Positions 5,099-16,501 of a stretch of 32,000 nt of DNA are shown one piece after another; the first letter of the stretch is position 1; each line of letters begins with the position of its first letter. The translations under genes were made by a program, and so were the position numbers. The DNA lies in the NCBI RefSeq assembly GCF_000237865.1, contig NC_017457.1:60001-92000 (forward strand), in the 5' to 3' direction. Below the pieces are notes generated by a model. That model had not been told where the DNA came from. It searched no databases and was given only the letters and a program-made list of their open reading frames with translations. Source of the DNA: Haloquadratum walsbyi C23. GTDB taxonomy: Archaea; Halobacteriota; Halobacteria; Halobacteriales; Haloferacaceae.

Positions 5099-5642
5099 AT
5101 GCTTGAGATAGTGAACATAGTCGGGTCGGGGGATATAGACCAGCGGTTAGATCTCCTCTCAGTATATACGGATGTTGAGCCACCACTAGCAAAGTACGAC
5201 CCCGAGATGTGCCACGGGATGTATCTGTTCGGTGACAACGAAGAGTCACCCTTAGTTACAATTTACACATCTGGAAAATACATAATTGTCGGTGCGGAAA
5301 GTGTAGACGAGCTTGAGGGGACAAGACAGGAAATGTTGCAAACGCTGTCTGAGTCTGATGAAATGAACGATATAGGAGACGCTCAAGTTGAAATAAGTAA
5401 TATTGTTGCGTCTTGAGATGTAGCTATGGAGCTTGACTTAGATCGAGTTTCTATCGAACTCGGGCTTGAAAATACTGAGTGCGACCCGAGAAATTTCCCC
5501 AGGGGTAGTCTACGATGATAGCAAGAACAACTGTACTGTGCTGATATTTAGAACAGGAAAGGTGACTATCACAGGTACAACTTCCCTCGTCGATATAGAA
5601 AACGCATATGAGCAGTTTTTGGAATTGCCTCCACAGCACTAA
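5099..5642 (+). pseudogene. TATA-box binding protein paralogue, disrupted (in-frame TGA plus 1-nt frameshift)
   Basis: The first TBP repeat is intact (MLEIVNIVGSGDIDQRLDL...TSGKYIIVGAESVDE...EISNIVAS). TGA follows at 5414-5416. The second repeat continues as DVAMELDLDRVSIELGLENTECDPRNFP. After an extra base near 5500-5501, the shifted frame reads GVVYDDSKNNCTVLIFRTGKVTITGTTSLVDIENAYEQFLELPPQH, ending at TAA 5640-5642. Confidence 0.8.
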
Positions 5643-5683: not shown

Positions 5684-6235
5684 TCAGACTTCACGAAGTC
5701 TATCTATCTCCTCCTGAATCTGCTGGAGAGCAGACTTTGCTTCCTCACATTCTGTCGTGCCTCCAATGATTGCCTTGTCGGTTGAAAAAATAAAAAGAGT
5801 TACTGCAAACTCTGGCGGTCGATACACAATCGCTGGGAACTGCTCTGGTTCATATTCAGTTTTCTCCAGTCCCAGAGCAATTGTCAAAGCTTCCAGATTT
5901 ACATCAACCTCTAACGTGCCGACGAAGACAGAAGTCACGTGACGAAACTCATACTCAGGCATCTTAACGCCAGCATCGGAAAGAAGCGTTCGTAACTGAG
6001 ACTCGGATTCTTCGAGATCGGCTTCAGTCTTCGCACCTCGAATCTGGAACGAGCCCATGCGGACAGGATTAATACAGGACTATCGTCCCCGCAATATATC
6101 CCCTCCTAGTCAAGTTAGTATCAATTGGAGTTTCGGCATTCTCAACCAAATCACCAACCAACAGACGAAGATCTAACCCTCACTCCAGCGACCTAATCCC
6201 ATCGCACTCGCAATCTCAAAGATACCTATTGGTGG
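5684..6235 (-). pseudogene. TATA-box binding protein paralogue, N-terminal repeat decayed by frameshifts and stops
   Basis: The 124-aa ORF (5684-6058) holds the end of repeat 1 and all of repeat 2 (GSFQIRGAKT..., LGLEKTEYEPEQFPAIVYRPPEFAVTLFIFSTDKAIIGG). Hand translation upstream on the minus strand gives broken TBP-like pieces in other frames: FEIASAMGLG from about 6220, then LDLRLLVGDLVENAE. The upper boundary is approximate. Confidence 0.65.
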
Positions 6236-6303
6236 CTCATCAGTTGATCTGGTTCTTCTGTTCGGTTACTGTTAATTCATCATAGACTACTTCAGGGGCG
6301 GAC

Positions 6304-7821
6304 ATGATTGTCTCAAACATGTCCGTGTCCTTGGACGAACTCGATTCACAACTCTTCAAATGTGCTGATATCATCCGTGATGCGGTTGATTCCACCGATT
6401 ATAAGGAGTATATCCTCCCGCTGGTCTACTATAAGGCTATCTCTGATGAGTTTGCGAAGCAGTATCAGAAGAATGTCACCGAGTACGGTGAGGAGTTTGC
6501 CCGCCGTGAGAATCTCTATGATGTTCCTGTCATCCCAGACGGATATATGTGGGATGACGTTCGAGCGGTCAGCGATAACGTGGATGAGGCACTCAACGAG
6601 AGTTTCGACGCACTCGTTGAGGCAAACCCCGAATTGAGAGGTGTTTTCCGAGCCGATTACATTGACGCCGATGCTCTCGGTGATGACCGTCTTGGACGCC
6701 TCGTAGAACATCTCTCGAAGTACGACTTAGACACGGATAGCGTTCCACCAGATATGCTCGGTGAGGCGTATATGGACTTGGTTCGCCACTTCGCAGAGGA
6801 GGAGGGCAAGTCTGGCGGGCAGTTCTTCACGCCACCACAGATTGTCAACCTCTGCGTTCGACTCGTTGATGAATTTGAGGATGGGCACACATTCCACGAT
6901 CCCACCGTTGGCTCAGGTGGAATGCTTATCGAAGCCGCTCGGTACTATCGTGAAGAGCAGAACGGCGACCCACAGAAATTCGAACTGACGGGGCAGGAAA
7001 TCAACCCTGATATCGCCGCTATCGCTAAAATGAACCTCTCCATTCACGGACTCAACGGGGAGATTGAACGAGAGGACTCACTCGCTTACCCGCAGTTTAC
7101 CGATGAGACAGATGACTCAGTTGCCCGCTTCAATAGAGTTCTCGCCAACTTTCCATTCTCCGCAGACTGGGCGAAAGACGAGCTTCAAGATGACCCCTAC
7201 GACCGTTTCGACTGGCACGAGAAACTCCCACGGGCAGATCGTGGTGACTACGCCTTCATTATGCACATCGCAAAGCAACTGAAGACACCTGAGCAGGATG
7301 GCGAGGGTGGGAAAGCGTCGATTGTGATTCCGCACGGCGTTCTCTTCCGCAAGCACGAGCAACGGTATCGTAAGCCAATGCTGGAGAACGATATGGTGGA
7401 AGCAATTGTTGGACTTCCCGAGAACCTTTTCCAGAACAACTCAATTCCATCTGCTGTGCTTGTGCTGAACACCGACAAACCAGAAGAACGAGAGGGGGAA
7501 GTACAATTCATCCACGCCGCAGATGAGGACTTCTACGACGAACTTTCCAATCAGAATCAGCTCACACATGAAGGGCTTGACCATATCATCGAAAACTTCC
7601 GAGGCTGGACAACCGAAGAGCGAGTGAGTCGAACGGTCGGAATGGATGAGATTCGAGAAAACGATTATAATCTAAATATCGCCCTGTACGTCGATACGAC
7701 CGAACCTGAGGAAGATATTGATGTTGAGGAGGAGCTGGCGAAGTTACGGGACTTACAGGCAGAACGAGACGATATTGAATCTCAAATGACTCAGCATATG
7801 GAGGCTCTGAAATATGAGTGA
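6304..7821 (+). CDS. hsdM: type I restriction-modification system, methyltransferase subunit
   Basis: 505 aa with an HsdM N-terminal region (LFKCADIIRDAVDSTDYKEYILPLVYYKAISDEF), SAM motif I (HDPTVGSGGMLIEA) and an NPPF-type motif IV variant (LANFPFS). An ATGAGTGA start/stop overlap links it to the next gene. Confidence 0.93.
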   Translation: MIVSNMSVSLDELDSQLFKCADIIRDAVDSTDYKEYILPLVYYKAISDEFAKQYQKNVTEYGEEFARRENLYDVPVIPDGYMWDDVRAVSDNVDEALNESFDALVEANPELRGVFRADYIDADALGDDRLGRLVEHLSKYDLDTDSVPPDMLGEAYMDLVRHFAEEEGKSGGQFFTPPQIVNLCVRLVDEFEDGHTFHDPTVGSGGMLIEAARYYREEQNGDPQKFELTGQEINPDIAAIAKMNLSIHGLNGEIEREDSLAYPQFTDETDDSVARFNRVLANFPFSADWAKDELQDDPYDRFDWHEKLPRADRGDYAFIMHIAKQLKTPEQDGEGGKASIVIPHGVLFRKHEQRYRKPMLENDMVEAIVGLPENLFQNNSIPSAVLVLNTDKPEEREGEVQFIHAADEDFYDELSNQNQLTHEGLDHIIENFRGWTTEERVSRTVGMDEIRENDYNLNIALYVDTTEPEEDIDVEEELAKLRDLQAERDDIESQMTQHMEALKYE

Positions 7822-9088
7822 CGACGCCGCACTGGACGAGTTTGGTGTAGGCTCAGAGGGTTCAAACAAGTCGGATACGGCTGTAAAAAGCAAGCAGAAA
7901 ACTGATGATTTACAAGCGCTGGAAGCATCACCAATTGAAGACTGGGAGTTGCTAAGGTTGGGTGATGTTCTGTCATTTGAGTATGGAGATAATCTGCCTG
8001 CGGATACACGAGAAGATGGTGAGATCCCTGTATACGGGTCTAACGGACAAGTAGATACCCACACAGAGGCAAATGTTGATACAGCAGGGATTATCATCGG
8101 GAGAAAGGGTTCTATCGGCAAAGGAGAATTCAGTATTAATCCGTTCTGGGCGATAGACACAACATATTATATAAGTGACAATGAAACAAGCGAAAATCTA
8201 CGATTCGTATATTACTTGTTACAGAATATGAAGCTTGAGAGGCTAAACGCCGCCTCAGCTATCCCTGGTCTAAATCGTAATGATGCTTATAATTTAAATA
8301 CGCTTATTCCACCGCTTTCAGAACAGCAGAAGATTGCTACCGTCCTCCGCACCGTTGACCAAGCGATTCAGAAGACTGAGGAGATCATAGAGCAAACTCG
8401 ACGAGCAAAAACAGGTATACAGCAAGAGTTGTTTACGCAAGGATACTATGACCACAGGTTTTTTGTGGAGACAAGAGTTGGCGAGTTACCAGAATCGTGG
8501 CGGTTAGAAAAAATAAAAAACCATACTGAACTTGTCTCTGGTGCTCACGTGAAATCGGAGTTAGTCTCTGATGATAGTTCTCTCACGCCGTATCTTACTG
8601 GGCCTGAAGACTTCGATGAACTTGGGTTTACAATGACCAAGTATACCGATGAGCCAACAAAATTCTGTAAAGAAGGAGACACACTTGTCACTGTCAAGGG
8701 TTCTGGGTGTGGAAAATCTACGTTCGCAGACCGACGTGCCTGTATTAGCAGACAACTCAAAGCACTACGACCGAATGGTAAACTGGAAGAACTCTACTTA
8801 TTTTACTTTGTTGAGACCAAGCAGAAACTTTTGAAAAGCCTTGCAGAGGGTTCTGCGATTCCAGGGTTGTCCAACTCCCATCTAACGGCTTTGGATATTC
8901 CGATTCCAAGTATAGAGGAGCAACGCAAAGTGGGTGAGGTCTTGAAAAAATACGACGACAGGATTGTCTATGAAAAAAAGTATAAGTCTCAACTCCAGCG
9001 TCTCAAACACGGTTTGATGCAAGACCTCCTCTCAGGCGACGTCCGAACAGCCGACGTTGATATAGAGATTCCACAGGAGGTCGCATAG
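7814..9088 (+). CDS. hsdS: type I R-M specificity subunit (first of two)
   Basis: 424 aa with two variable target-recognition regions separated by conserved helices (PPLSEQQKIATVLRTVDQAIQKTEEIIEQT and IPSIEEQRKVGEVLKKYDDRI...QLQRLKHGLMQDLLSG), the standard HsdS architecture. Confidence 0.9.
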   Translation: MSDDAALDEFGVGSEGSNKSDTAVKSKQKTDDLQALEASPIEDWELLRLGDVLSFEYGDNLPADTREDGEIPVYGSNGQVDTHTEANVDTAGIIIGRKGSIGKGEFSINPFWAIDTTYYISDNETSENLRFVYYLLQNMKLERLNAASAIPGLNRNDAYNLNTLIPPLSEQQKIATVLRTVDQAIQKTEEIIEQTRRAKTGIQQELFTQGYYDHRFFVETRVGELPESWRLEKIKNHTELVSGAHVKSELVSDDSSLTPYLTGPEDFDELGFTMTKYTDEPTKFCKEGDTLVTVKGSGCGKSTFADRRACISRQLKALRPNGKLEELYLFYFVETKQKLLKSLAEGSAIPGLSNSHLTALDIPIPSIEEQRKVGEVLKKYDDRIVYEKKYKSQLQRLKHGLMQDLLSGDVRTADVDIEIPQEVA

Positions 9089-9089
9089 T

Positions 9090-9362
9090 ATGGGTAGTGT
9101 CATATCTAAAGGCTGGGTCAATCATCTCACTATGAAGTGTTGGGAATGGACTGTAGTAGAGCGGGTAAGTCGGACAGTCAGGATGGAAGAGATCCGCGAA
9201 AACGACTACAATCTGAATATCGATTTATACGTCGATACGACCAAACCAGAGGAAGATATTGACGTACAGGAGGAACTGGCGGAACTACGCGAGTTGCAGG
9301 CAGAACGAGACGAGATTGAAGCGAAGATGACCCAGCATATGGAGGCTCTGAATTATGAGTGA
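9090..9362 (+). pseudogene. remnant of the 3' end of a second hsdM gene
   Basis: The last 71 aa of this 90-aa ORF (WTVVERVSRTVRMEEIRENDYNLNIDLYVDTTKPEEDIDV...MTQHMEALNYE) match the last 71 aa of HsdM (WTTEERVSRTVGMDEIRENDYNLNIALYVDTTEPEEDIDV...MTQHMEALKYE). By my hand count, 58 of 71 residues are identical. It carries no methyltransferase motifs. It ends in the same ATGAGTGA overlap with the following hsdS. Confidence 0.8.
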
Positions 9363-10710
9363 GGACATTACGCTGGATAAGTTCACAGAGGCTACCGCCT
9401 CTCAAGAGCGACAGGAGACACCAATAGGTGAGCTCCCAGTTGACTGGGACGTAGAGTGGTTGAAAGACGCAGTTGGGATTAATCCTGATGGTTTCTCTGA
9501 GGATGACTGGTCATCAGAGACATTTGAGTATATCTCGCTCTCAGAGGCATCTAATGGCGAAATAGAAAACAGTAAGACAATTCCTATCACGGACGCTCCA
9601 AGTCGGGCACAAAGAACAGTTCAGCAGGGTGATGTACTTGTGGGGACTGTCCGTCCAAAACAGAAAAGCCACGGGTTTGTCAGTGAGGAACACGCTGGGA
9701 AAATCTGTTCTTCTGGCTTTGGTGTCTTGCGAACTGAAACCCATTTTAACTCCCGCTATCTTCTTCAAGAAATCCTCTCAAACCGATTTTTTTCCCAGAT
9801 GGAGGCATATGTTGCAGGTTCAGGCTACCCTGCTGTCAAAATCAGTGACCTGAAGAAGCATCGAATTTCCATCCCACCTCTTGTGGAACAGAGGAAAATC
9901 GCAACCGTCCTCCACACCATCGACCAAGCGATTCAGAAGACCGAGGAAATTATCCAGGGGCTCCAAACGGCTCGTAAAGGACTTACTCAACAGTTATTGC
10001 GTTCTGGTTTTGAGGACGAAGCCAATTTAGTAAGCACCCGTTCTGGTCCTATCTCATTTGAGATCCCTTCTCATTGGAATGTTGTGACGATTGATAATAT
10101 TACTGACAATATATATCGGTATCCAACCTATCAAAATATTGATTACGTAGATGAAGGTGTTCCAGAGGTGAGAATTGGTATGTTAGACGGGGAGGGTTAT
10201 ATCGAACGAGGTGATGAAAAGTACATCTCTGAATCAACCTCAGAAGAATATCCCCGTACACAACTTGAACACGGTGATACGGTGATGGCTGTAAGGGGCG
10301 CTACGTTAGGAAAGACCGCCTCTGTTCCAGAGTGGTTAGATGGGGGCAATATTAATCCGAACCTAATTCGTATTTGCTCAAATGATGAGGTCTTAGATAG
10401 GTATCTCACGGAACTTTTCCTGAGTGGTCTGGTTCAAAGGCAAATAGAAGCTTTCTCTCAGCAAACAACGGTGAAAACAATCAAATCTGGAGACATTCGT
10501 AGAATTGCCGCCCCTATTCCGCCTGTAACTGAGCAAGAAAGAATAATGGATATACTATCTTCGTTTTCATCTCGTATTCAAAACGACGATTCGTATCTTT
10601 CCCGTCTCCAGCGTCTCAAGAGCGGTCTAATGCAAGACCTTCTCTCAGGTAAAGTCCGAACAACTAATACTAACATAGAAATTCCAGAAGAAGTCATCAC
10701 ATATGGTTAG
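9355..10710 (+). CDS. hsdS: type I R-M specificity subunit (second, different target-recognition domains)
   Basis: 451 aa. The conserved spacer helices are shared with the first HsdS (PPLVEQRKIATVLHTIDQAIQKTEEIIQG; RLQRLKSGLMQDLLSGKVRT), but both variable regions are unrelated to it. The stop overlaps the hsdR start. Confidence 0.9.
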   Translation: MSEDITLDKFTEATASQERQETPIGELPVDWDVEWLKDAVGINPDGFSEDDWSSETFEYISLSEASNGEIENSKTIPITDAPSRAQRTVQQGDVLVGTVRPKQKSHGFVSEEHAGKICSSGFGVLRTETHFNSRYLLQEILSNRFFSQMEAYVAGSGYPAVKISDLKKHRISIPPLVEQRKIATVLHTIDQAIQKTEEIIQGLQTARKGLTQQLLRSGFEDEANLVSTRSGPISFEIPSHWNVVTIDNITDNIYRYPTYQNIDYVDEGVPEVRIGMLDGEGYIERGDEKYISESTSEEYPRTQLEHGDTVMAVRGATLGKTASVPEWLDGGNINPNLIRICSNDEVLDRYLTELFLSGLVQRQIEAFSQQTTVKTIKSGDIRRIAAPIPPVTEQERIMDILSSFSSRIQNDDSYLSRLQRLKSGLMQDLLSGKVRTTNTNIEIPEEVITYG

Positions 10711-13675
10711 TATCCCATCCGAGCAGGGCGTTGAACGCTCGTATCTCTCGTGGCTTGACGGGTTAGGATGGGAAGTCCACGGACAAGATGGAAGTCGAGG
10801 AGCGAATGTCCTTGATGTAGAGTACGAACGTCGAAGCAATGAGGTTATTTACTGGAATTTACTGGCTGAACAGCTCATCGTGATCAATGACTCCCTCACA
10901 GAGGATAATGTCGAGAAGTTCGTTTCCTCGCTCAGACGTGATCTTGACGCTGAGAACTTGATGGACGGGAATGAAGCGTTCTATGAGTTACTGACCAAGG
11001 GAAAGACATTCTCAGTCAAGCAGAATGGGAGTGCCAGCAGGACGGTCTATATTGACCTGATTGACTACGAGAACCCAGAGAACAATCGCTTCCACGCTGT
11101 TAATCAGTTCTCTGTCTCCCGTGAAACGACGATCCGTCCCGACGTGAACCTCCTTGTCAACGGGATTCCGCTGGTGACGATGGAACTCAAGAGTGTCGCA
11201 CAGGACAACGACTGGCACAACGCTGTGAGCGACCTCCAAGCGTACGAAGATGATGTACCTCGACTGTTCGTCCCGACGCTATTCAACGTCGCCGCCGATA
11301 CGATGGAGTTCCGATACGGGGCAGTCGGAGCGTCCAAGGAGTTCTATGAGCCGTGGAATGATGCTCCCGAGCAGTACACAGATGACGGCGACGCAAAGCA
11401 GGCGATACAGGCACTCTGTAACCCGCAGACGATTCTCGATATTCTCAAGAACTTCGTGTTTTACGAGCGACGAGCAGGTGGGAATGCCAAAATTATTCCA
11501 CGGCATATGCAGTACTACGCTGTCAATCGGATGCTGGAGCGGGTTGACCGAGACGAACACGACCGAGGGCTCATCTGGCACACCCAAGGATCGGGCAAGT
11601 CATTCACGATGCTGTATGCGGCAGAGAATCTACTAGAGCGGGCTGTTGCTCGTAACCCGCAGGTGTTCATCATCGTCGATACGGACAAGCTGAATAGTCA
11701 AATGCGAGACCAACTGGCGAATCTCTCGCTGGGAGCGTGGACGGAAGCAGAGAGCATCGACCATCTACAGGAACTTATCGAACAGGGTCAGAGCGAGCTC
11801 ATTCTTACGACCATCCAGAAGTTCCAAGATGTTGACCCAGACAGTCAGGGGAACGACGAAGTCATCGTGATGTCCGATGAGGCTCACCGATTTATGGAAG
11901 CTGACCTTGGGAGTCGATTGGATGCCGCACTGCCAAGCTGCACTCACTTCGGCTTTACTGGTACGCCTGTCCGTGAGGGTGAACAGCACAAAGACCGCAA
12001 CACCTTCCGTGAGTTTTCACCAGAGGGCGAAGATTATATCCACCGCTATTCGGTCAAACAGGGGATTGACGACGAGCTGATTCTCCCTGTGTACTTCACG
12101 CTCCGCCACGAGATGGAGTGGCAGATTGATGAGTCGGGGCTTGATGAAGAGTTTGAACGGCAGTTCCGCGGACTGAGTTCGGATGAGAAGCGGGAACTCA
12201 TCCGTGACAACGTAACTGCGAGGATGTTGGCGGAGATTGAGCCACGAGTACAGAAAGCGGTTGAAGAAATCGACCAGCATTATGAGGAGTCTGTTTCTCC
12301 GAACAACTGGAAGGGAATGGTTGTCACCCCAAGCCGTCGGTCGGCAGCGATGTACGGTGAACGGCTCGTAGAACGGCGAGGTAAAGACGAGGTCGAGGTT
12401 CTATACACCTCGAACAAGGACGACCCAGACCTCATCCAGCAGTTCCATACGGACTCTGAGGAACGTGATTCGATAGTTAACGAGTTCAAAGACGAGGACA
12501 ATCCAAAACTATTGATTGTCCACAATATGCTTCTGACGGGATTTGACGCTCCGATTCTGAAGACGATCTATCTTGACCGTAACCTGAAGAATCATAATCT
12601 GATGCAGGCAATCGCTCGAACGAACCGCCCTGCAAGTGGGAAGGAAAATGGTGAGATTGTCGATTTCCAAGGCGTCTTTGAGAATATCGACGAGGCTCTC
12701 GATTACGATACGGAGACGCAGTCGTACGCCGCTCGTGACAAAGATGAGCTGTTTGACGACCTCGTTGACCAGTTGGAAACGGTGATAGATATTTTCGAGG
12801 GGATTCCGAAAACAGACACGCAGGAAGCCACATCGGACGCAGTTGAGCAAGTGCTGACACACCCGACTCGCCGTGAGTTCAAGCAGGGATTCCGTCGGCT
12901 TCAAGATCTGTATGAGGCGGTCGCACCTGACAGTCGACTCGTCGAGAAGGACATCGAGAGGCGGTACAAGTGGCTGAGTCGGATTCACGTTGCGTTCAGG
13001 CGGACAACTAGCGGTGAAGATGACCCTGAAGAAGATATGCGAGAGAAGACCCGAGAGATAGTCAGTGAAAACGTCGCAATTGACACTGTGAAACGAGACT
13101 TTCCAACGTACAAACTCGGTGAGGACGTCTTAGAAGAAGTGGATGAGATAGATAATCCGTCTGTGAAAGCCTCCCAAATCGCCCACGCAACCCAGGAGCA
13201 TCTCAACCCACGAGAAAACCAGAATCCTCGATATAAGCGACTTAGCGAGCGGGTGACTGATGTTGTTGAGCGATGGCAAGGTGGCGATATAGCCGACCCT
13301 GACGCAGTTGAGGCGTTACAATCAGTCGAAGAGGAGATTCTGGAGGTTGAGGAAGAAGCTGAAGAGCAGGGAATGACCGATAGTGAGTTTGCTATCTACA
13401 CGCACCTTACCGAGGAAACGCCAGAAGCAATTGAGTCAGACGAGCAGGCAGAAGCCGTCGCTAACGAGATTATTGAGCAGTTCTACGACCGTGTTGATCA
13501 CGGGTTTGCTGGGTGGCAAACGAACCAGCAGACGATTGCTGAGATTGAACGCATCTTACTGGACGTGCTTGTGGTGGAGTATGATCTTGGAGACCTGATC
13601 GATGATGAGTTTGTGGACACGGTTCGAGAGTATCTGATACAGAACCACGAAGCGACAGTTGACCACTATGAGTGA
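10703..13675 (+). CDS. hsdR: type I R-M restriction/translocase subunit
   Basis: 990 aa with an N-terminal PD-(D/E)xK nuclease (RPDVNLLVNGIPLVTMELKS), Walker A (HTQGSGKSFTM), a DEAH box (VMSDEAHR) and helicase motif VI (QAIARTNR). Confidence 0.95.
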   Translation: MVSIPSEQGVERSYLSWLDGLGWEVHGQDGSRGANVLDVEYERRSNEVIYWNLLAEQLIVINDSLTEDNVEKFVSSLRRDLDAENLMDGNEAFYELLTKGKTFSVKQNGSASRTVYIDLIDYENPENNRFHAVNQFSVSRETTIRPDVNLLVNGIPLVTMELKSVAQDNDWHNAVSDLQAYEDDVPRLFVPTLFNVAADTMEFRYGAVGASKEFYEPWNDAPEQYTDDGDAKQAIQALCNPQTILDILKNFVFYERRAGGNAKIIPRHMQYYAVNRMLERVDRDEHDRGLIWHTQGSGKSFTMLYAAENLLERAVARNPQVFIIVDTDKLNSQMRDQLANLSLGAWTEAESIDHLQELIEQGQSELILTTIQKFQDVDPDSQGNDEVIVMSDEAHRFMEADLGSRLDAALPSCTHFGFTGTPVREGEQHKDRNTFREFSPEGEDYIHRYSVKQGIDDELILPVYFTLRHEMEWQIDESGLDEEFERQFRGLSSDEKRELIRDNVTARMLAEIEPRVQKAVEEIDQHYEESVSPNNWKGMVVTPSRRSAAMYGERLVERRGKDEVEVLYTSNKDDPDLIQQFHTDSEERDSIVNEFKDEDNPKLLIVHNMLLTGFDAPILKTIYLDRNLKNHNLMQAIARTNRPASGKENGEIVDFQGVFENIDEALDYDTETQSYAARDKDELFDDLVDQLETVIDIFEGIPKTDTQEATSDAVEQVLTHPTRREFKQGFRRLQDLYEAVAPDSRLVEKDIERRYKWLSRIHVAFRRTTSGEDDPEEDMREKTREIVSENVAIDTVKRDFPTYKLGEDVLEEVDEIDNPSVKASQIAHATQEHLNPRENQNPRYKRLSERVTDVVERWQGGDIADPDAVEALQSVEEEILEVEEEAEEQGMTDSEFAIYTHLTEETPEAIESDEQAEAVANEIIEQFYDRVDHGFAGWQTNQQTIAEIERILLDVLVVEYDLGDLIDDEFVDTVREYLIQNHEATVDHYE

Positions 13676-14390
13676 GGTACGATTACACGAGCTAGAATTG
13701 CTGGGTGAGAGCGTCGAGTACGAACTACGGCGGAGTGCAGAGGCGTCAGAGCCACGGATTGACGTCGATATTCACGGGGTGAGGGTAGTCGTCCCAGAGA
13801 CTGCTGATTTTCAGCCAACAGAGCTACTGAAACAGAATGCATCGTGGGTGCTGGAGAAACAGCGAGTGTATCAGAAGTATCGTGAGGAAGCCCCTGAGCG
13901 GACGTTTGAGGCTGGCGAGAGATTTCCGTTCCTCGGAGAAGAACACAAGTTGGTGGTTGAATCTCGGCAGTCTCACGCTGTGTCAGACCGGACGATTCAT
14001 CTGCGAGAGAGCGCTGTCGCACAGTCGTCACTCAAACAAGCACTACGGAATTTCTACCGAAGTCGGGCACGCAAACACTTCGTTGATCGTGCCGACCAGT
14101 ATGCTTCTCAGATGGGTGTTGAGTATAAGCAGATTGAGATTCGGAATCAGCGGACAAGGTGGGGGAGTTGTTCAACGTCAGGAACACTCGGACTCAACTG
14201 GCGGTTGATGATGGCTTCGCCTAACGTTATCGACTACATCCTTGTCCACGAGTTAGCACATCTCCGTGAGCCGAATCACACGCAAGCGTTCTGGGATTTT
14301 GTCGCAGAGTACGATCCTGACTACGTGGAACACGCCGAATGGCTTGAGGAAAACAGTACGCAACTCATCTTTTCTCAAGCCGACCTATGA
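13668..14390 (+). CDS. DUF45/YgjP-like zinc metallopeptidase (HExxH)
   Basis: RNQRTRWGSCSTSGTLGLNWRLMMASPNVIDYILVHELAHLREPNHTQAFWDFV is the DUF45 signature with an HELAH zinc motif. The track starts at a TTG (13659). I prefer ATG 13668, which forms an ATGAGTGA overlap with the hsdR stop. Confidence 0.85.
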   Translation: MSEVRLHELELLGESVEYELRRSAEASEPRIDVDIHGVRVVVPETADFQPTELLKQNASWVLEKQRVYQKYREEAPERTFEAGERFPFLGEEHKLVVESRQSHAVSDRTIHLRESAVAQSSLKQALRNFYRSRARKHFVDRADQYASQMGVEYKQIEIRNQRTRWGSCSTSGTLGLNWRLMMASPNVIDYILVHELAHLREPNHTQAFWDFVAEYDPDYVEHAEWLEENSTQLIFSQADL

Positions 14391-14939
14391 AACTGCAAGT
14401 TGCTCTATTTCCGCCGTTATATCCTTGATAGACGACGAGATCTGGTTGAGGTCAGTAAGCCCAGTGCAGACAACCTTCCCGCTGGCGAAAATCAGGAGGA
14501 CAGCATCTTGACCACGGTAAATTAGAGCAGGAAATTGCTCGGGTTCGTACTCGGCTTGCTCCAGTCCGAGTCCGATAGCAATTGCTTCTAACGACAGAGT
14601 CGAATCAACTTCTGCTGTTGCGACGATGTTCTTGATTTCGGCAGTAGGTTCGTATTCAAAGTTCAGTAACTCACGCATCAGCGTATTCACCCGCCTGACC
14701 ACCTCCTCGAAATGTGCTGGTGATGTCGCTCCCACAATCGAGCATTTGCCACTTCGGTAAAACGGCACGTAGGTGTCATCGGGGGCAAAGCGAGCTTGCA
14801 ACCAGTGGTTTTCAGATGGTTCGTAGGTGACAGAATTGACTTCGGATCGTTGTTCAAAGGTCTCAGCCAACGCCGATAACTCAAGCTCCTGCTGGTAGGT
14901 CAACATCCCAACGACGTTCGCAATCTCAAACTCTGCCAC
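14385..14939 (-). CDS. tbp: TATA-box binding protein paralogue (intact, two repeats)
   Basis: 184 aa. Repeat 1 reads FEIANVVGML...YRSGKCSIVGATS. Repeat 2 reads IKNIVATAEVDSTLSLEAIAIGLGLEQAEYEPEQFPALIYRGQDAVLLIFASGKVVCTG. It is convergent with the DUF45 gene, with a 6-nt 3' overlap. Confidence 0.9.
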   Translation of the reverse strand: MAEFEIANVVGMLTYQQELELSALAETFEQRSEVNSVTYEPSENHWLQARFAPDDTYVPFYRSGKCSIVGATSPAHFEEVVRRVNTLMRELLNFEYEPTAEIKNIVATAEVDSTLSLEAIAIGLGLEQAEYEPEQFPALIYRGQDAVLLIFASGKVVCTGLTDLNQISSSIKDITAEIEQLAVS

Positions 14940-15122: not shown

Positions 15123-16199
15123 TCAAATATCATCATTTTCTCTGATAGAGATTTCGACACCACAGGCTTCTGCCATCCGCCCCAGTTCACGTTGTTTCTG
15201 ATCCCAGCTTAAGTTGACTTCAAGATAGTATTCCTGTTCTAGTTCACGTGCTTGCTTCATCTCCTTGTCGTTGTATGTTGGTTCGTCATTGACGATAGCA
15301 CGATTCTTCGCAGGGATGTATGGGAGTGGCTCAATCGCAGAGATAAGGTCGTGATTTTGGATGAGGTAGTTCACTATCGACGCCATCAGGTCGCTCTGGA
15401 CAGAATCTGTAAAGGTCTCAGCGACATCACCACTCTGAGAGATTTCGCCAGAATATGGCTGTGTTATCCTGTCCTCAGAGTCAGTTGATGAATCTTCATT
15501 ATCCAATCGACGTGGAGTGTCCGTATCAATCTCGGACTCGATATCGTTGACGAGCCTGTCAATCATCTCTTTCGCTTGCGTTTGTGCTTCCGATTCGATA
15601 GCGTCAGAAACGGTGTCAGTGAGCAAATCCACAACCGCTGTGGCTAATTCTTCTTTGTCATCTGTCAGCGTATCCCGAGATTTTCGTAACTTCCTGATGT
15701 GTTCGATAATCGCTATTGATTCTTCATTGTGTATCGTGCTAACTTGATACGCCTCAATGATACCCTTCTTGTCTGGAAGTTTCCGAAGTGTCGTCCGTTC
15801 AACCGCCTCGACTTTGAATTGTGAATCACTGTCACCGAGATATCGGTAGTAGAACTCATACTCCTGTCCGTTGGTGAGAATACCCAATCTGACATTCTCA
15901 CTCTGGAGATATGCACTCAGTTGCTCTCGATGCTTGGAGGTGAGCGTTTTACCCAGTCCCTTTGCTTCGAGAAATGCCACGGGTTGTCCGCCGAGTATAA
16001 GAGCATAATCGACTTTGAATGTTTTACTGAATGCCTTCACCGAGTACTCTAGTTCGGTGTTAGCTGGGATCTCCCAGCCAAGAAGTTCGATGAAATCGTT
16101 TAGTATAGACGCTTTCGTAGTTGCTTCCTGCATCTGCGGTGAATCCTCGATGATGGGTTGAGCAGACTCAACGTAGTCCCGAATCGATGCTGTGTCCAT
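15123..16199 (-). CDS. orphan HsdR_N/Mrr-like PD-(D/E)xK domain protein with acidic coiled middle and unknown C-terminal domain
   Basis: ILNDFIELLGWEIPANTELEYSV...FKVDYALILGGQPVAFLEAKGLGKTL...REQLSAYLQSENVRLGILTNGQEYEFYY matches the N-terminal nuclease-like domain of type I HsdR (D...EAK core, then the TNG..Y.F strand). It has no helicase motifs. The track starts at 16271; I prefer the internal ATG at 16199 (MDTASIRDY). Confidence 0.7.
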   Translation of the reverse strand: MDTASIRDYVESAQPIIEDSPQMQEATTKASILNDFIELLGWEIPANTELEYSVKAFSKTFKVDYALILGGQPVAFLEAKGLGKTLTSKHREQLSAYLQSENVRLGILTNGQEYEFYYRYLGDSDSQFKVEAVERTTLRKLPDKKGIIEAYQVSTIHNEESIAIIEHIRKLRKSRDTLTDDKEELATAVVDLLTDTVSDAIESEAQTQAKEMIDRLVNDIESEIDTDTPRRLDNEDSSTDSEDRITQPYSGEISQSGDVAETFTDSVQSDLMASIVNYLIQNHDLISAIEPLPYIPAKNRAIVNDEPTYNDKEMKQARELEQEYYLEVNLSWDQKQRELGRMAEACGVEISIRENDDI

Positions 16200-16501
16200 T
16201 CTTACAAGTGATCTTCTCTCGTGTGATTCAAAGAAATGTGGGCAAAGACTCAGTAACCCTCCATTCGTCATTGGTCTCCTTGTCTGTAGTTACTCGTACT
16301 GACGCTCTTACTTCGTCTACGTGGGCGGTAGCTCACTCGCAGAACCTGTTTATTTCGCCCTGAGGTGATGTCAGTTCAGGGCGGAGGACTAGTTACCAAT
16401 GGGCTTCCACGGTGGTGGTATCACTTCGGTGATTCTTAAAATGATGATAAATATCGTCGACTCTTCTTGTAGATGAAAAAATCCTAATACAGACAAGAAT
16501 T

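Follow-up and report, generated by a model that had tools for sequence, protein, structure and literature searches.

A type I restriction-modification operon with a probable tandem-doubled specificity module and a chimeric hsdR::hsdM reading frame on plasmid PL100 of Haloquadratum walsbyi C23

Why would a type I restriction-modification (R-M) operon carry two full-length specificity genes, and what is the short open reading frame (ORF) lodged between them? Both questions are raised by plasmid PL100 of the haloarchaeon Haloquadratum walsbyi C23, of which we analyzed a window of 32,000 nucleotides (nt; contig NC_017457.1, positions 60,001 to 92,000). All positions given below are those of this window. 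The operon reads hsdM, hsdS1, an ORF of 90 amino acids (aa), hsdS2, hsdR and a YgjP-like gene. An earlier note on this DNA had placed the 90-aa ORF right after the first hsdS, where we also found it, and had taken it for the footprint of a foreign specificity cassette that recombined in through the conserved end of hsdM. Our analysis leads to a different reading of the junction. The locus is probably a type I operon with a tandem-doubled specificity module, in which two HsdS subunits would share one HsdM and one HsdR, and in which the ORF, a chimera of an hsdR head and an hsdM tail, would relay coupled translation to hsdS2 and hsdR.

The larger part of the junction ORF is an hsdM tail. Its last 70 codons formed an ungapped alignment with the 70 codons at the 3' end of the resident hsdM at an offset of 1541 nt, with 57 of 70 aa and 170 of 205 nt (83%) identical. 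When the preceding Trp is included the protein count becomes 58 of 71, which is the figure that the earlier note had given. An independent repeat search returned the same stretch as a direct repeat (D1; 7606-7842 vs 9147-9383, 237 nt, 80%) beginning exactly at the TGG codon of this Trp, and the ORF covered the last 37 positions of the Pfam family N6_Mtase (274-310, E = 1.3e-5). Among the 70 codons, 38 were identical, 19 differed synonymously and 13 non-synonymously. According to the Nei-Gojobori method, the last 68 codons of the two tails had a synonymous divergence (dS) of ~1.07 and a non-synonymous divergence (dN) of 0.078, the comparison values for HsdM genes of different haloarchaeal genera being a median dS of 1.54 and a dN of 0.10. 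Since a dS of about 1 is of the same order as that between genera, the M-tail copy is not a recent duplicate, as had been proposed, and it derives from a different hsdM lineage than the resident copy.

The description of the segment as foreign was correct in that the lineage is a different one, but it was too strong. At third codon positions, the ORF tail was 62-68% identical to hsdM genes of the Haloquadratum group, a closeness equal to that of the resident tail (62-65%), and the chromosomal HsdM of C23 (CCC40457.1) clusters with the plasmid HsdM at 90% protein identity. The ORF tail and CCC40457.1 also share an unusual Arg-Met motif (SRTVRM). With a chromosomal HsdM in the same cluster and a shared motif, a sister operon in the same cell is a plausible partner. 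Identity matrices of the M tails were nearly equidistant, with synonymous sites saturated, and resolve neither a common ancestry of the chimeras described below nor the donor. As a side observation, C23 holds two sister type I operons in one cell, one on the chromosome and one on PL100, and several metagenomic variants fall into the same HsdM cluster.

The first codons of the ORF have another origin. We aligned the end of hsdS1 and the sequence downstream of it to the end of hsdS2 with the hsdR start, and to 20 related operons. The ORF start (ATGGGTAGTGTCATATC) was identical to the resident hsdR start (ATGGTTAGTATCCCATC at 10703) at 13 of 17 nt, in register with the hsdS end. The relatives read ATGGTTAG or ATGGGTAG at the position of this stub, and the hsdR of Halorubrum salsamenti starts with ATGGGTAGCATCCCATCC. 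Moreover, a direct repeat shared by the ends of the two hsdS genes (D2) continues 18 nt beyond the hsdS1 stop. An hsdR-like start in register with the hsdS1 end indicates that the ORF consists of an hsdR head (9090-9106) joined to an hsdM tail (from the TGG at 9147). Judged from the alignment, the first ~6 codons of the ORF are the start of hsdR, a part that had been missed in the earlier note. The hsdS genes of the family end in ...CAG TAT GGT TAG, with the stop lying inside the hsdR start. In hsdS1 the end reads ...GCA TAG TAT GGG TAG, a change from CAG to TAG that stops the gene three codons before the canonical stop. Between head and tail, codons 7-19 (9108-9146) had no demonstrable similarity to hsdM or hsdR in local DNA alignments, with scores of 11 and 8, respectively, against 9.0 +/- 1.3 and 9.2 +/- 1.1 for shuffled controls. 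A hand count without gaps gave ~47% nt identity to hsdM, and the Trp/His spacing of the segment (GW..H.....W) resembles that of hsdR heads, where it fits hsdR residues 22-32.

The genes on both sides of the junction make up a complete operon (Table 1). Pfam searches and alignments identified the domain sets of HsdM, of an HsdS with two target recognition domains (TRDs) and of HsdR, including HsdM_N (PF12161, E = 1.3e-21) and N6_Mtase (PF02384, E = 1e-79) in HsdM, and HSDR_N, SWI2_SNF2, ResIII, T1R_D3-like and T1RH-like_C in HsdR. By its domain content the locus is a type I R-M system, with bipartite m6A methylation and restriction as predicted activities. hsdM, hsdS1, hsdS2, hsdR and the YgjP-like gene are each intact and full length. 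The 500-aa HsdM product matched exactly a recorded H. walsbyi type I subunit M, and the hsdS2 product was 100% identical to an H. walsbyi protein on record. Neighboring genes are tightly packed, with spacings of -8 nt (hsdM/hsdS1), +1 nt (hsdS1/ORF), -8 nt (ORF/hsdS2) and -8 nt (hsdS2/hsdR). The overlaps of hsdM with hsdS1 and of the ORF with hsdS2 are the same 8-nt ATGAGTGA, as had been noticed before. In the metagenomic proteins P0064, P0086 and P0223 (771, 731, and 387 aa) an HsdM or HsdM tail is fused with HsdS in one chain, so that in this family the 8-nt M/S overlap is at times read through to give a single polypeptide. The paper describing PL100 names restriction and methylase genes on the plasmid, without discussion of the present locus (PMC3119063), and a megablast search of positions 6000-14500 against a plasmid collection gave no match. 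An assembly artefact was set aside, as both S proteins lie on the PL100 contig of the deposited set and independent metagenome assemblies show the same layout.

Table 1. Positions of the operon genes, repeats and junction segments in the PL100 window.
Feature	Position	Strand	Remarks
hsdM	6319-7821	+	Deposited as CCC41939.1, 500 aa, starting at 6319; the ORF itself opens at 6304
M-tail repeat copy 1	7606-7821	+	Starts at the Trp TGG codon, ends with the hsdM stop; contains the ATGAGTGA overlap
hsdS1	7814-9088	+	424 aa; CCC41940.1; two Methylase_S stretches
Central conserved region of hsdS1	8306-8388	+	Direct repeat D3 with 9871-9953: 83 nt, 81%, 20-nt exact run
hsdS1 C-terminal conserved region, hsdS/hsdR overlap and hsdR stub	8980-9106	+	Direct repeat D2 with 10593-10719: 127 nt, 71%
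90-aa junction ORF (hsdR head :: hsdM tail)	9090-9362	+	1 nt after the hsdS1 stop; 8-nt overlap with hsdS2
hsdR-head stub	9090-9106	+	ATGGGTAGTGTCATATC; first ~6 hsdR codons
Middle 40 nt of junction ORF	9107-9146	+	Either decayed hsdM or leftover of a longer hsdR head
M-tail repeat copy 2	9147-9362	+	Remnant of methylase-domain end and C-terminal helix; repeat D1
hsdS2	9355-10710	+	451 aa; CCC41942.1; two Methylase_S stretches
hsdR	10703-13675	+	990 aa; CCC41943.1; overlaps hsdS2 by 8 nt (ATGGTTAG)
YgjP-like metallopeptidase gene	13659-14390	+	PF01863, E = 7e-59; conserved last gene of the operon family

A scan for HsdM in one genome per species yielded 45 haloarchaeal loci, about 40 of which could be read through. 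All of these ~40 loci had the order hsdM-hsdS-hsdR-YgjP with a single hsdS and 8-nt overlaps, and two hsdS genes were found in none of them. The YgjP gene followed hsdR in nearly all related loci extending that far. The metagenomic contig L059 is also single-S, and it is syntenic with the window on both sides (TATA-binding-protein [TBP] gene and hsdM upstream; hsdR, YgjP and beyond downstream), with 83.5% nt identity over 4 kb downstream from window position 10606. The single-S layout of the ~40 loci and of L059 indicates that the doubled layout is derived. Two complete hsdM-hsdS pairs, of which the present copy would be a remnant decayed in place, were seen in no related locus. Among the relatives, L054 and L057 are decaying.

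The junction ORF is not confined to PL100. Searching protein collections with the ORF recovered two other true chimeras, P0141 and P0170. Two metagenomic lineages, represented by eight contigs (L046-L051 and L052-L053), are organized as hsdM-hsdSa-chimera-hsdSb-hsdR with a chimera of 121 codons and the same overlaps. In both metagenomic chimeras the hsdR part comprises codons 1-51 (...V-L-Y-W) and passes into hsdM at a conserved Trp codon, position -71, and the M-tail homology of PL100 starts at the same Trp TGG. The three joints may go back to one ancestral joint, with the hsdR head of PL100 shortened in frame, or the Trp codon may be a preferred or selected breakpoint. A metagenome scan with a wobble-tolerant pattern of the PL100 junction peptide (KGWVNHLTMKCWEW) gave no match. 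Short matches annotated as type I M proteins (61-186 aa) were considered as further M-tail ORFs and rejected: the sequences that were read start at a conserved internal Met, Val or Leu, and the contexts that were checked revealed a contig-edge gene call or frameshifted pseudogenes.

Other arrangements were noticed at the positions that the chimera occupies here. In Halomicrobium katesii (L025:12817-14266), a 56-nt hsdR-head stub (52 of 56 nt identical to the true head) follows hsdS and is separated from an intact hsdR by an insert of ~1.45 kb, a further rearrangement at the same hsdS/hsdR boundary. A conserved gene for a predicted membrane protein of ~110 aa (MVSDxGLNYAxGNLLAGPSQW...) lies between hsdS and hsdR in L001 (12848-13176), L004, L017, L029, L037, and L035. 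Its start is the ATGGTTAG that overlaps the stop of hsdS, and its end is a TAATG at hsdR. The boundary between hsdS and hsdR seems to be a slot for accessory genes. Halorussus marinus (L036:12739-14253) has the order hsdM-hsdS-hsdM2-hsdR-YgjP, with a second full HsdM of 504 aa (43% identity to the HsdM of the window) where the window has the tail fragment, and this may be a two-methylase type I system of the PacII-like M1M2S kind.

How could such a module have arisen? We propose that an illegitimate joint fused the first hsdR codons to the last ~71 hsdM codons of a sister operon that belongs to the same clade, one associated with Haloquadratum, with the M side of the joint at the conserved Trp codon (TGG). 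This could have happened by unequal crossing-over between two operon copies or, with the same resulting topology, by a deletion between tandem operons reaching from the early hsdR of the first to the hsdM tail of the second. The joint of hsdR head and hsdM tail marks a tandem unit of M tail, hsdS and R head and not a crossover within the M tail. The route suggested earlier, in which homologous recombination in the conserved hsdM tail brought in a foreign segment with the hsdM 3' end and hsdS, has to its credit that M tails are ~75-86% identical in nt between operons, which would make them plausible homology arms, and that mosaic identity in the tail of the L047 chimera suggests crossovers within M tails. 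Yet such an event would exchange the hsdS gene and leave a single tail, whereas on PL100 an extra tail stands behind hsdS1, fused to an hsdR stub at its left boundary, and is no more foreign than the resident tail. We therefore consider this route very improbable. Another course would be duplication of the unit of M tail, hsdS and R head in place within one operon, followed by long divergence and piecemeal replacement of the recognition domains by recombination with other alleles. A tandem duplication would produce precisely the observed topology, the head of the L052 chimera is ~90% identical to the resident hsdR head, and hsdSa and hsdSb of L047 agree at 59 of 60 nt at their 3' ends, over the last conserved stretch, as a duplication or continuing gene conversion would predict. 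The PL100 tails, by contrast, stand at a dS of ~1, the C-terminal conserved regions of its hsdS genes are only 71% identical, and the head of the L047 chimera has only 54% protein identity to the resident HsdR. Duplication in place thus requires a very old array, while the joining of diverged sister operons requires one step, and we regard the former as possible though not likely.

Some of these identities appear to record later exchange. The tail of the L047 chimera matches its resident hsdM at 53 of 60 nt at the 5' end and then drops, the hsdSa and hsdSb genes of L047 are nearly identical across their last conserved stretch, and the L052 chimera resembles the resident gene in its hsdR head. 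Such mosaic identity of the flanks is what would be expected from gene conversion or cassette replacement via conserved flanks. The repeated flanks could thus serve as homology arms for swapping either S cassette. In PL100 they have diverged further and contain exact runs of at most 20 nt, and the earlier suggestion that the conserved regions provide shared homology agrees with their presence as direct repeats.

The two specificity genes differ where specificity would be set. In BLASTP, HsdS1 and HsdS2 aligned only from about residue 134 onwards, at 32% identity, and no similarity was detectable between their N-terminal recognition domains. At the DNA level, the conserved regions were 81% (central) and 71% (C-terminal) identical. 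The second hsdS is thus full length, with two Methylase_S stretches, helices like those of the first and unrelated TRDs, and the similarity is confined to the conserved regions, all as previously described. Because both HsdS proteins keep the HsdM-binding helices, one HsdM and one HsdR could assemble with either HsdS, giving two specificities. Of the proposal that one M and one R subunit serve two S subunits, the genetic part is borne out by the presence of two intact hsdS genes whose recognition domains are unrelated, from which the expression of both genes and the recognition of two motifs would be predicted. In the region 6000-14500, the conserved regions of hsdS1 and hsdS2 were joined by direct repeats only. 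No inverted repeats connected them there, the sole inverted pair with an arm in each gene (19 nt, 84%) lying outside these regions, and no recombinase domain was found among the operon ORFs and the flanking ORFs scanned. The locus therefore lacks the inverted repeats, the recombinase and the partial or silent hsdS copies of an inverting phase-variable multi-hsdS system, and recombination between its direct repeats would delete rather than invert.

Is the junction ORF maintained, and what might it do? Stops number 7 and 5 in the other two frames of the PL100 ORF. Between the chimeras of L047 and L052, 72 of 363 nt are different, but neither indels nor stops occur, and dN/dS is ~0.15. When 72 random substitutions were simulated, the frame stayed open in only 4.7% of cases. 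Residues unseen in 107 distinct genuine HsdM tails numbered 3, 2, and 7 in the three chimeras, compared with a mean of 0.84 per genuine tail. Ten of these 12 novel residues lie in the methylase-domain remnant and two, a background level, in the C-terminal helix region; the helix region of PL100 has none. In the predicted structure of the PL100 ORF, the helix at residues 59-89 was the sole confident element (block-mean predicted local distance difference test [pLDDT] 73-92), the overall mean pLDDT being 64. As the earlier note had expected, the retained peptide holds the part of HsdM that contacts HsdS, since the C-terminal helix is present and forms a four-helix bundle with HsdS in solved type I methyltransferases (PMC9613975). 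In all three chimeras, then, the methylase-domain remnant decays, while the putative HsdS-docking helix stays canonical and the frame and the start/stop overlaps are kept. This conservation may reflect selection that acts on the frame and possibly also on the helix, or else repeated import of the hsdS-proximal tail from functional operons. At two HsdM-invariant positions, ORF codons 26 and 33 (window 9165-9188), we noticed alterations in two of the three chimeras, PL100 and L052 (2077-2442): Ala is replaced by Asp or Gly, and Glu by Lys in both, by shared ancestry, convergence or chance (~7%, a rough estimate).

Haloarchaea translate overlapping genes of the same direction by termination and reinitiation. 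For Haloferax it has been shown that reinitiation requires the genes to overlap or to be separated by a very short spacer, that ~20 nt between them suffices to abolish it, and that overlaps of -8 nt are among the commonest (PMC10666635, PMC6728339). In PL100, and likewise in L047 and L052, every junction has a stop/start overlap or a spacer of a few nt. Ribosomes could thus pass by termination and reinitiation from hsdS1 to the ORF, from there to hsdS2 and on to hsdR. Without the open ORF, a gap of ~270 nt would uncouple hsdS2 and hsdR. Since an in-frame chimera running from the old hsdR start to the old hsdM stop keeps the junctions native, we read the ORF as a translational relay.

Several points weigh against this interpretation. 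The low dN/dS and the open frame need not reflect selection on the ORF, since both could have been imported from functional hsdM and hsdR genes by recurrent recombination. The stop of hsdS1 now lies 1 nt ahead of the ORF start, with no overlap, so that the relay has departed from its ancestral form. In addition, TTTATA at 9224-9229 is a possible internal TATA box that could free hsdS2 from coupling. The origin of 9107-9146 leaves the PL100 joint either shared with the metagenomic joints or separate from them, and the architecture is rare, with three lineages in very large databases. Our literature search for expression, proteomic or methylome data on PL100 found none. The TTTATA motif lies 126 nt upstream of the hsdS2 start and was created by an ORF-specific change of GCC CTG to GAT TTA, possibly by chance; the same change turns Ala into Asp at a position invariant in the 107 HsdM tails.

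The ORF might instead be an inert scar, a pseudogene remnant in an operon that uses only one hsdS, or in a plasmid system that is decaying as a whole. The surplus of novel residues in its methylase remnant (3, 2, and 7 vs a mean of 0.84) would fit, as would the premature stop of hsdS1 relative to the family, the broken TBP gene next to the operon and the decaying relatives L054 and L057. But the operon retains hsdM, both hsdS genes, hsdR and the YgjP-like gene in intact, full-length form, restriction depends on reading through the region because hsdR comes after hsdS2, and the ORF has stayed open without indels in three diverged lineages; an inert scar is thus unlikely. In a rather different account, the ORF would be maintained as a small protein whose HsdM helix binds the coiled coil of HsdS and thereby modulates the assembly of the methylase or restriction complex. 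It is favored by the distribution of the novel residues, of which 10 cluster in the methylase remnant and 2, a background level, fall in the helix region; the helix is the only element predicted with confidence, and deletion of the corresponding tail in PacII abolishes M-S assembly (PMC9613975). The same pattern would be produced if the hsdS-proximal tail were regularly replaced along with its cassette, the chimeric tails do not cluster by pairwise identity, and synthesis of the peptide is conjectural, which makes this account doubtful, and we would give it little credence. If it were true, the small protein would tune which S subunit joins HsdM, or damp restriction, and would represent a regulator of assembly that is encoded in the operon itself, originated in a recombination joint and is conserved in at least three haloarchaeal lineages.

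A translational relay within a doubled specificity module, as we favor, can be set beside several known systems. Alternative S subunits acting with shared catalytic subunits occur with plasmid-borne hsdS genes of lactococci and in the Sau1 system of Staphylococcus aureus, which has one hsdR and two hsdMS pairs. Their S genes reside at separate loci or replicons, whereas those of PL100 are adjacent and linked by a chimeric ORF. Inverting hsdS loci, such as SpnD39III/ivr of S. pneumoniae and those of S. suis, resemble PL100 in having one hsdM and one hsdR with several hsdS genes, whose repeated conserved regions allow TRD exchange (PMC7394358, PMC7672463). Their extra copies are inverted and often partial or silent, switching is reversible and a recombinase is usually nearby (PMC7394358, PMC7672463). 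On PL100, in contrast, two complete hsdS genes run in the same direction as parts of one chain of overlapping ORFs. Surveys of multi-hsdS loci have targeted the inverted, switching copies of bacteria (PMC7394358, PMC7672463), and ~4% of type I operons are cited as having redundant hsdS copies (PMC12429846). One of these, BlihIA of Bacillus licheniformis, is like PL100 a type I operon with a redundant hsdS, but its extra hsdS is a half gene with one recognition domain, and no hsdR::hsdM junction ORF is described for it (PMC12429846). Among solved structures, the HsdM of the window is closest to the PacII M subunits (E ~1e-82), and the junction ORF keeps a helix equivalent to the HsdM tail of PacII M1M2S (PDB 7VRU/7VS4; PMC9613975). 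In PacII this tail belongs to a full methylase subunit, while in the PL100 ORF it has lost its connection to the catalytic domain and follows a few codons of hsdR instead. The overlaps of -8 nt and the spacer of ~1 nt are like those of coupled haloarchaeal gene pairs encoding one complex, but a non-catalytic chimeric ORF acting only as a relay has no counterpart in the coupling studies (PMC6728339, PMC10666635), and we infer this role from the layout described here.

Redundant hsdS genes are thus already known, and the direct tandem array with an hsdR::hsdM junction ORF is a variant of such systems, modest but recurrent; our literature searches found no description of a direct, presumably co-expressed tandem S array with a chimeric junction ORF. 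Type I systems are known to vary their specificity by hsdS shuffling, and direct tandem doubling would be another route, in archaea, to two specificities by which one operon could express both at once instead of switching between them. That the same joint recurs in uncultured haloarchaea suggests a maintained arrangement, as opposed to an accident that happened once. The chimera also offers a simple sequence signature for finding such arrays, which are likely under-counted because annotation pipelines call the chimera a methylase fragment or skip it. PL100 has been reported to be unstable in culture (PMC3119063), and a comparison of methylomes with and without the plasmid should therefore be feasible.

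Some features of the window outside the operon deserve mention. Upstream of hsdM, two partial TBP ORFs of 105 and 124 aa lie at 5099-5416 (+) and 5684-6058 (-); in the metagenomic relatives L059 and L060, which are syntenic, a single intact TBP gene of 186 aa occupies this place, so that the PL100 copy looks disrupted. Further upstream, two adjacent, overlapping ORFs on the + strand (871-1608 and 1605-2387) both matched the N6_N4 DNA methylase family, the former weakly and partially (E = 6e-9) and the latter in full (E = 2e-48). Past the operon, an ORF of 382 aa (15123-16271, -) had weak matches to HSDR_N, MmeI_N and PD-(D/E)XK nuclease domains and may encode a stand-alone nuclease, either whole or as a fragment.

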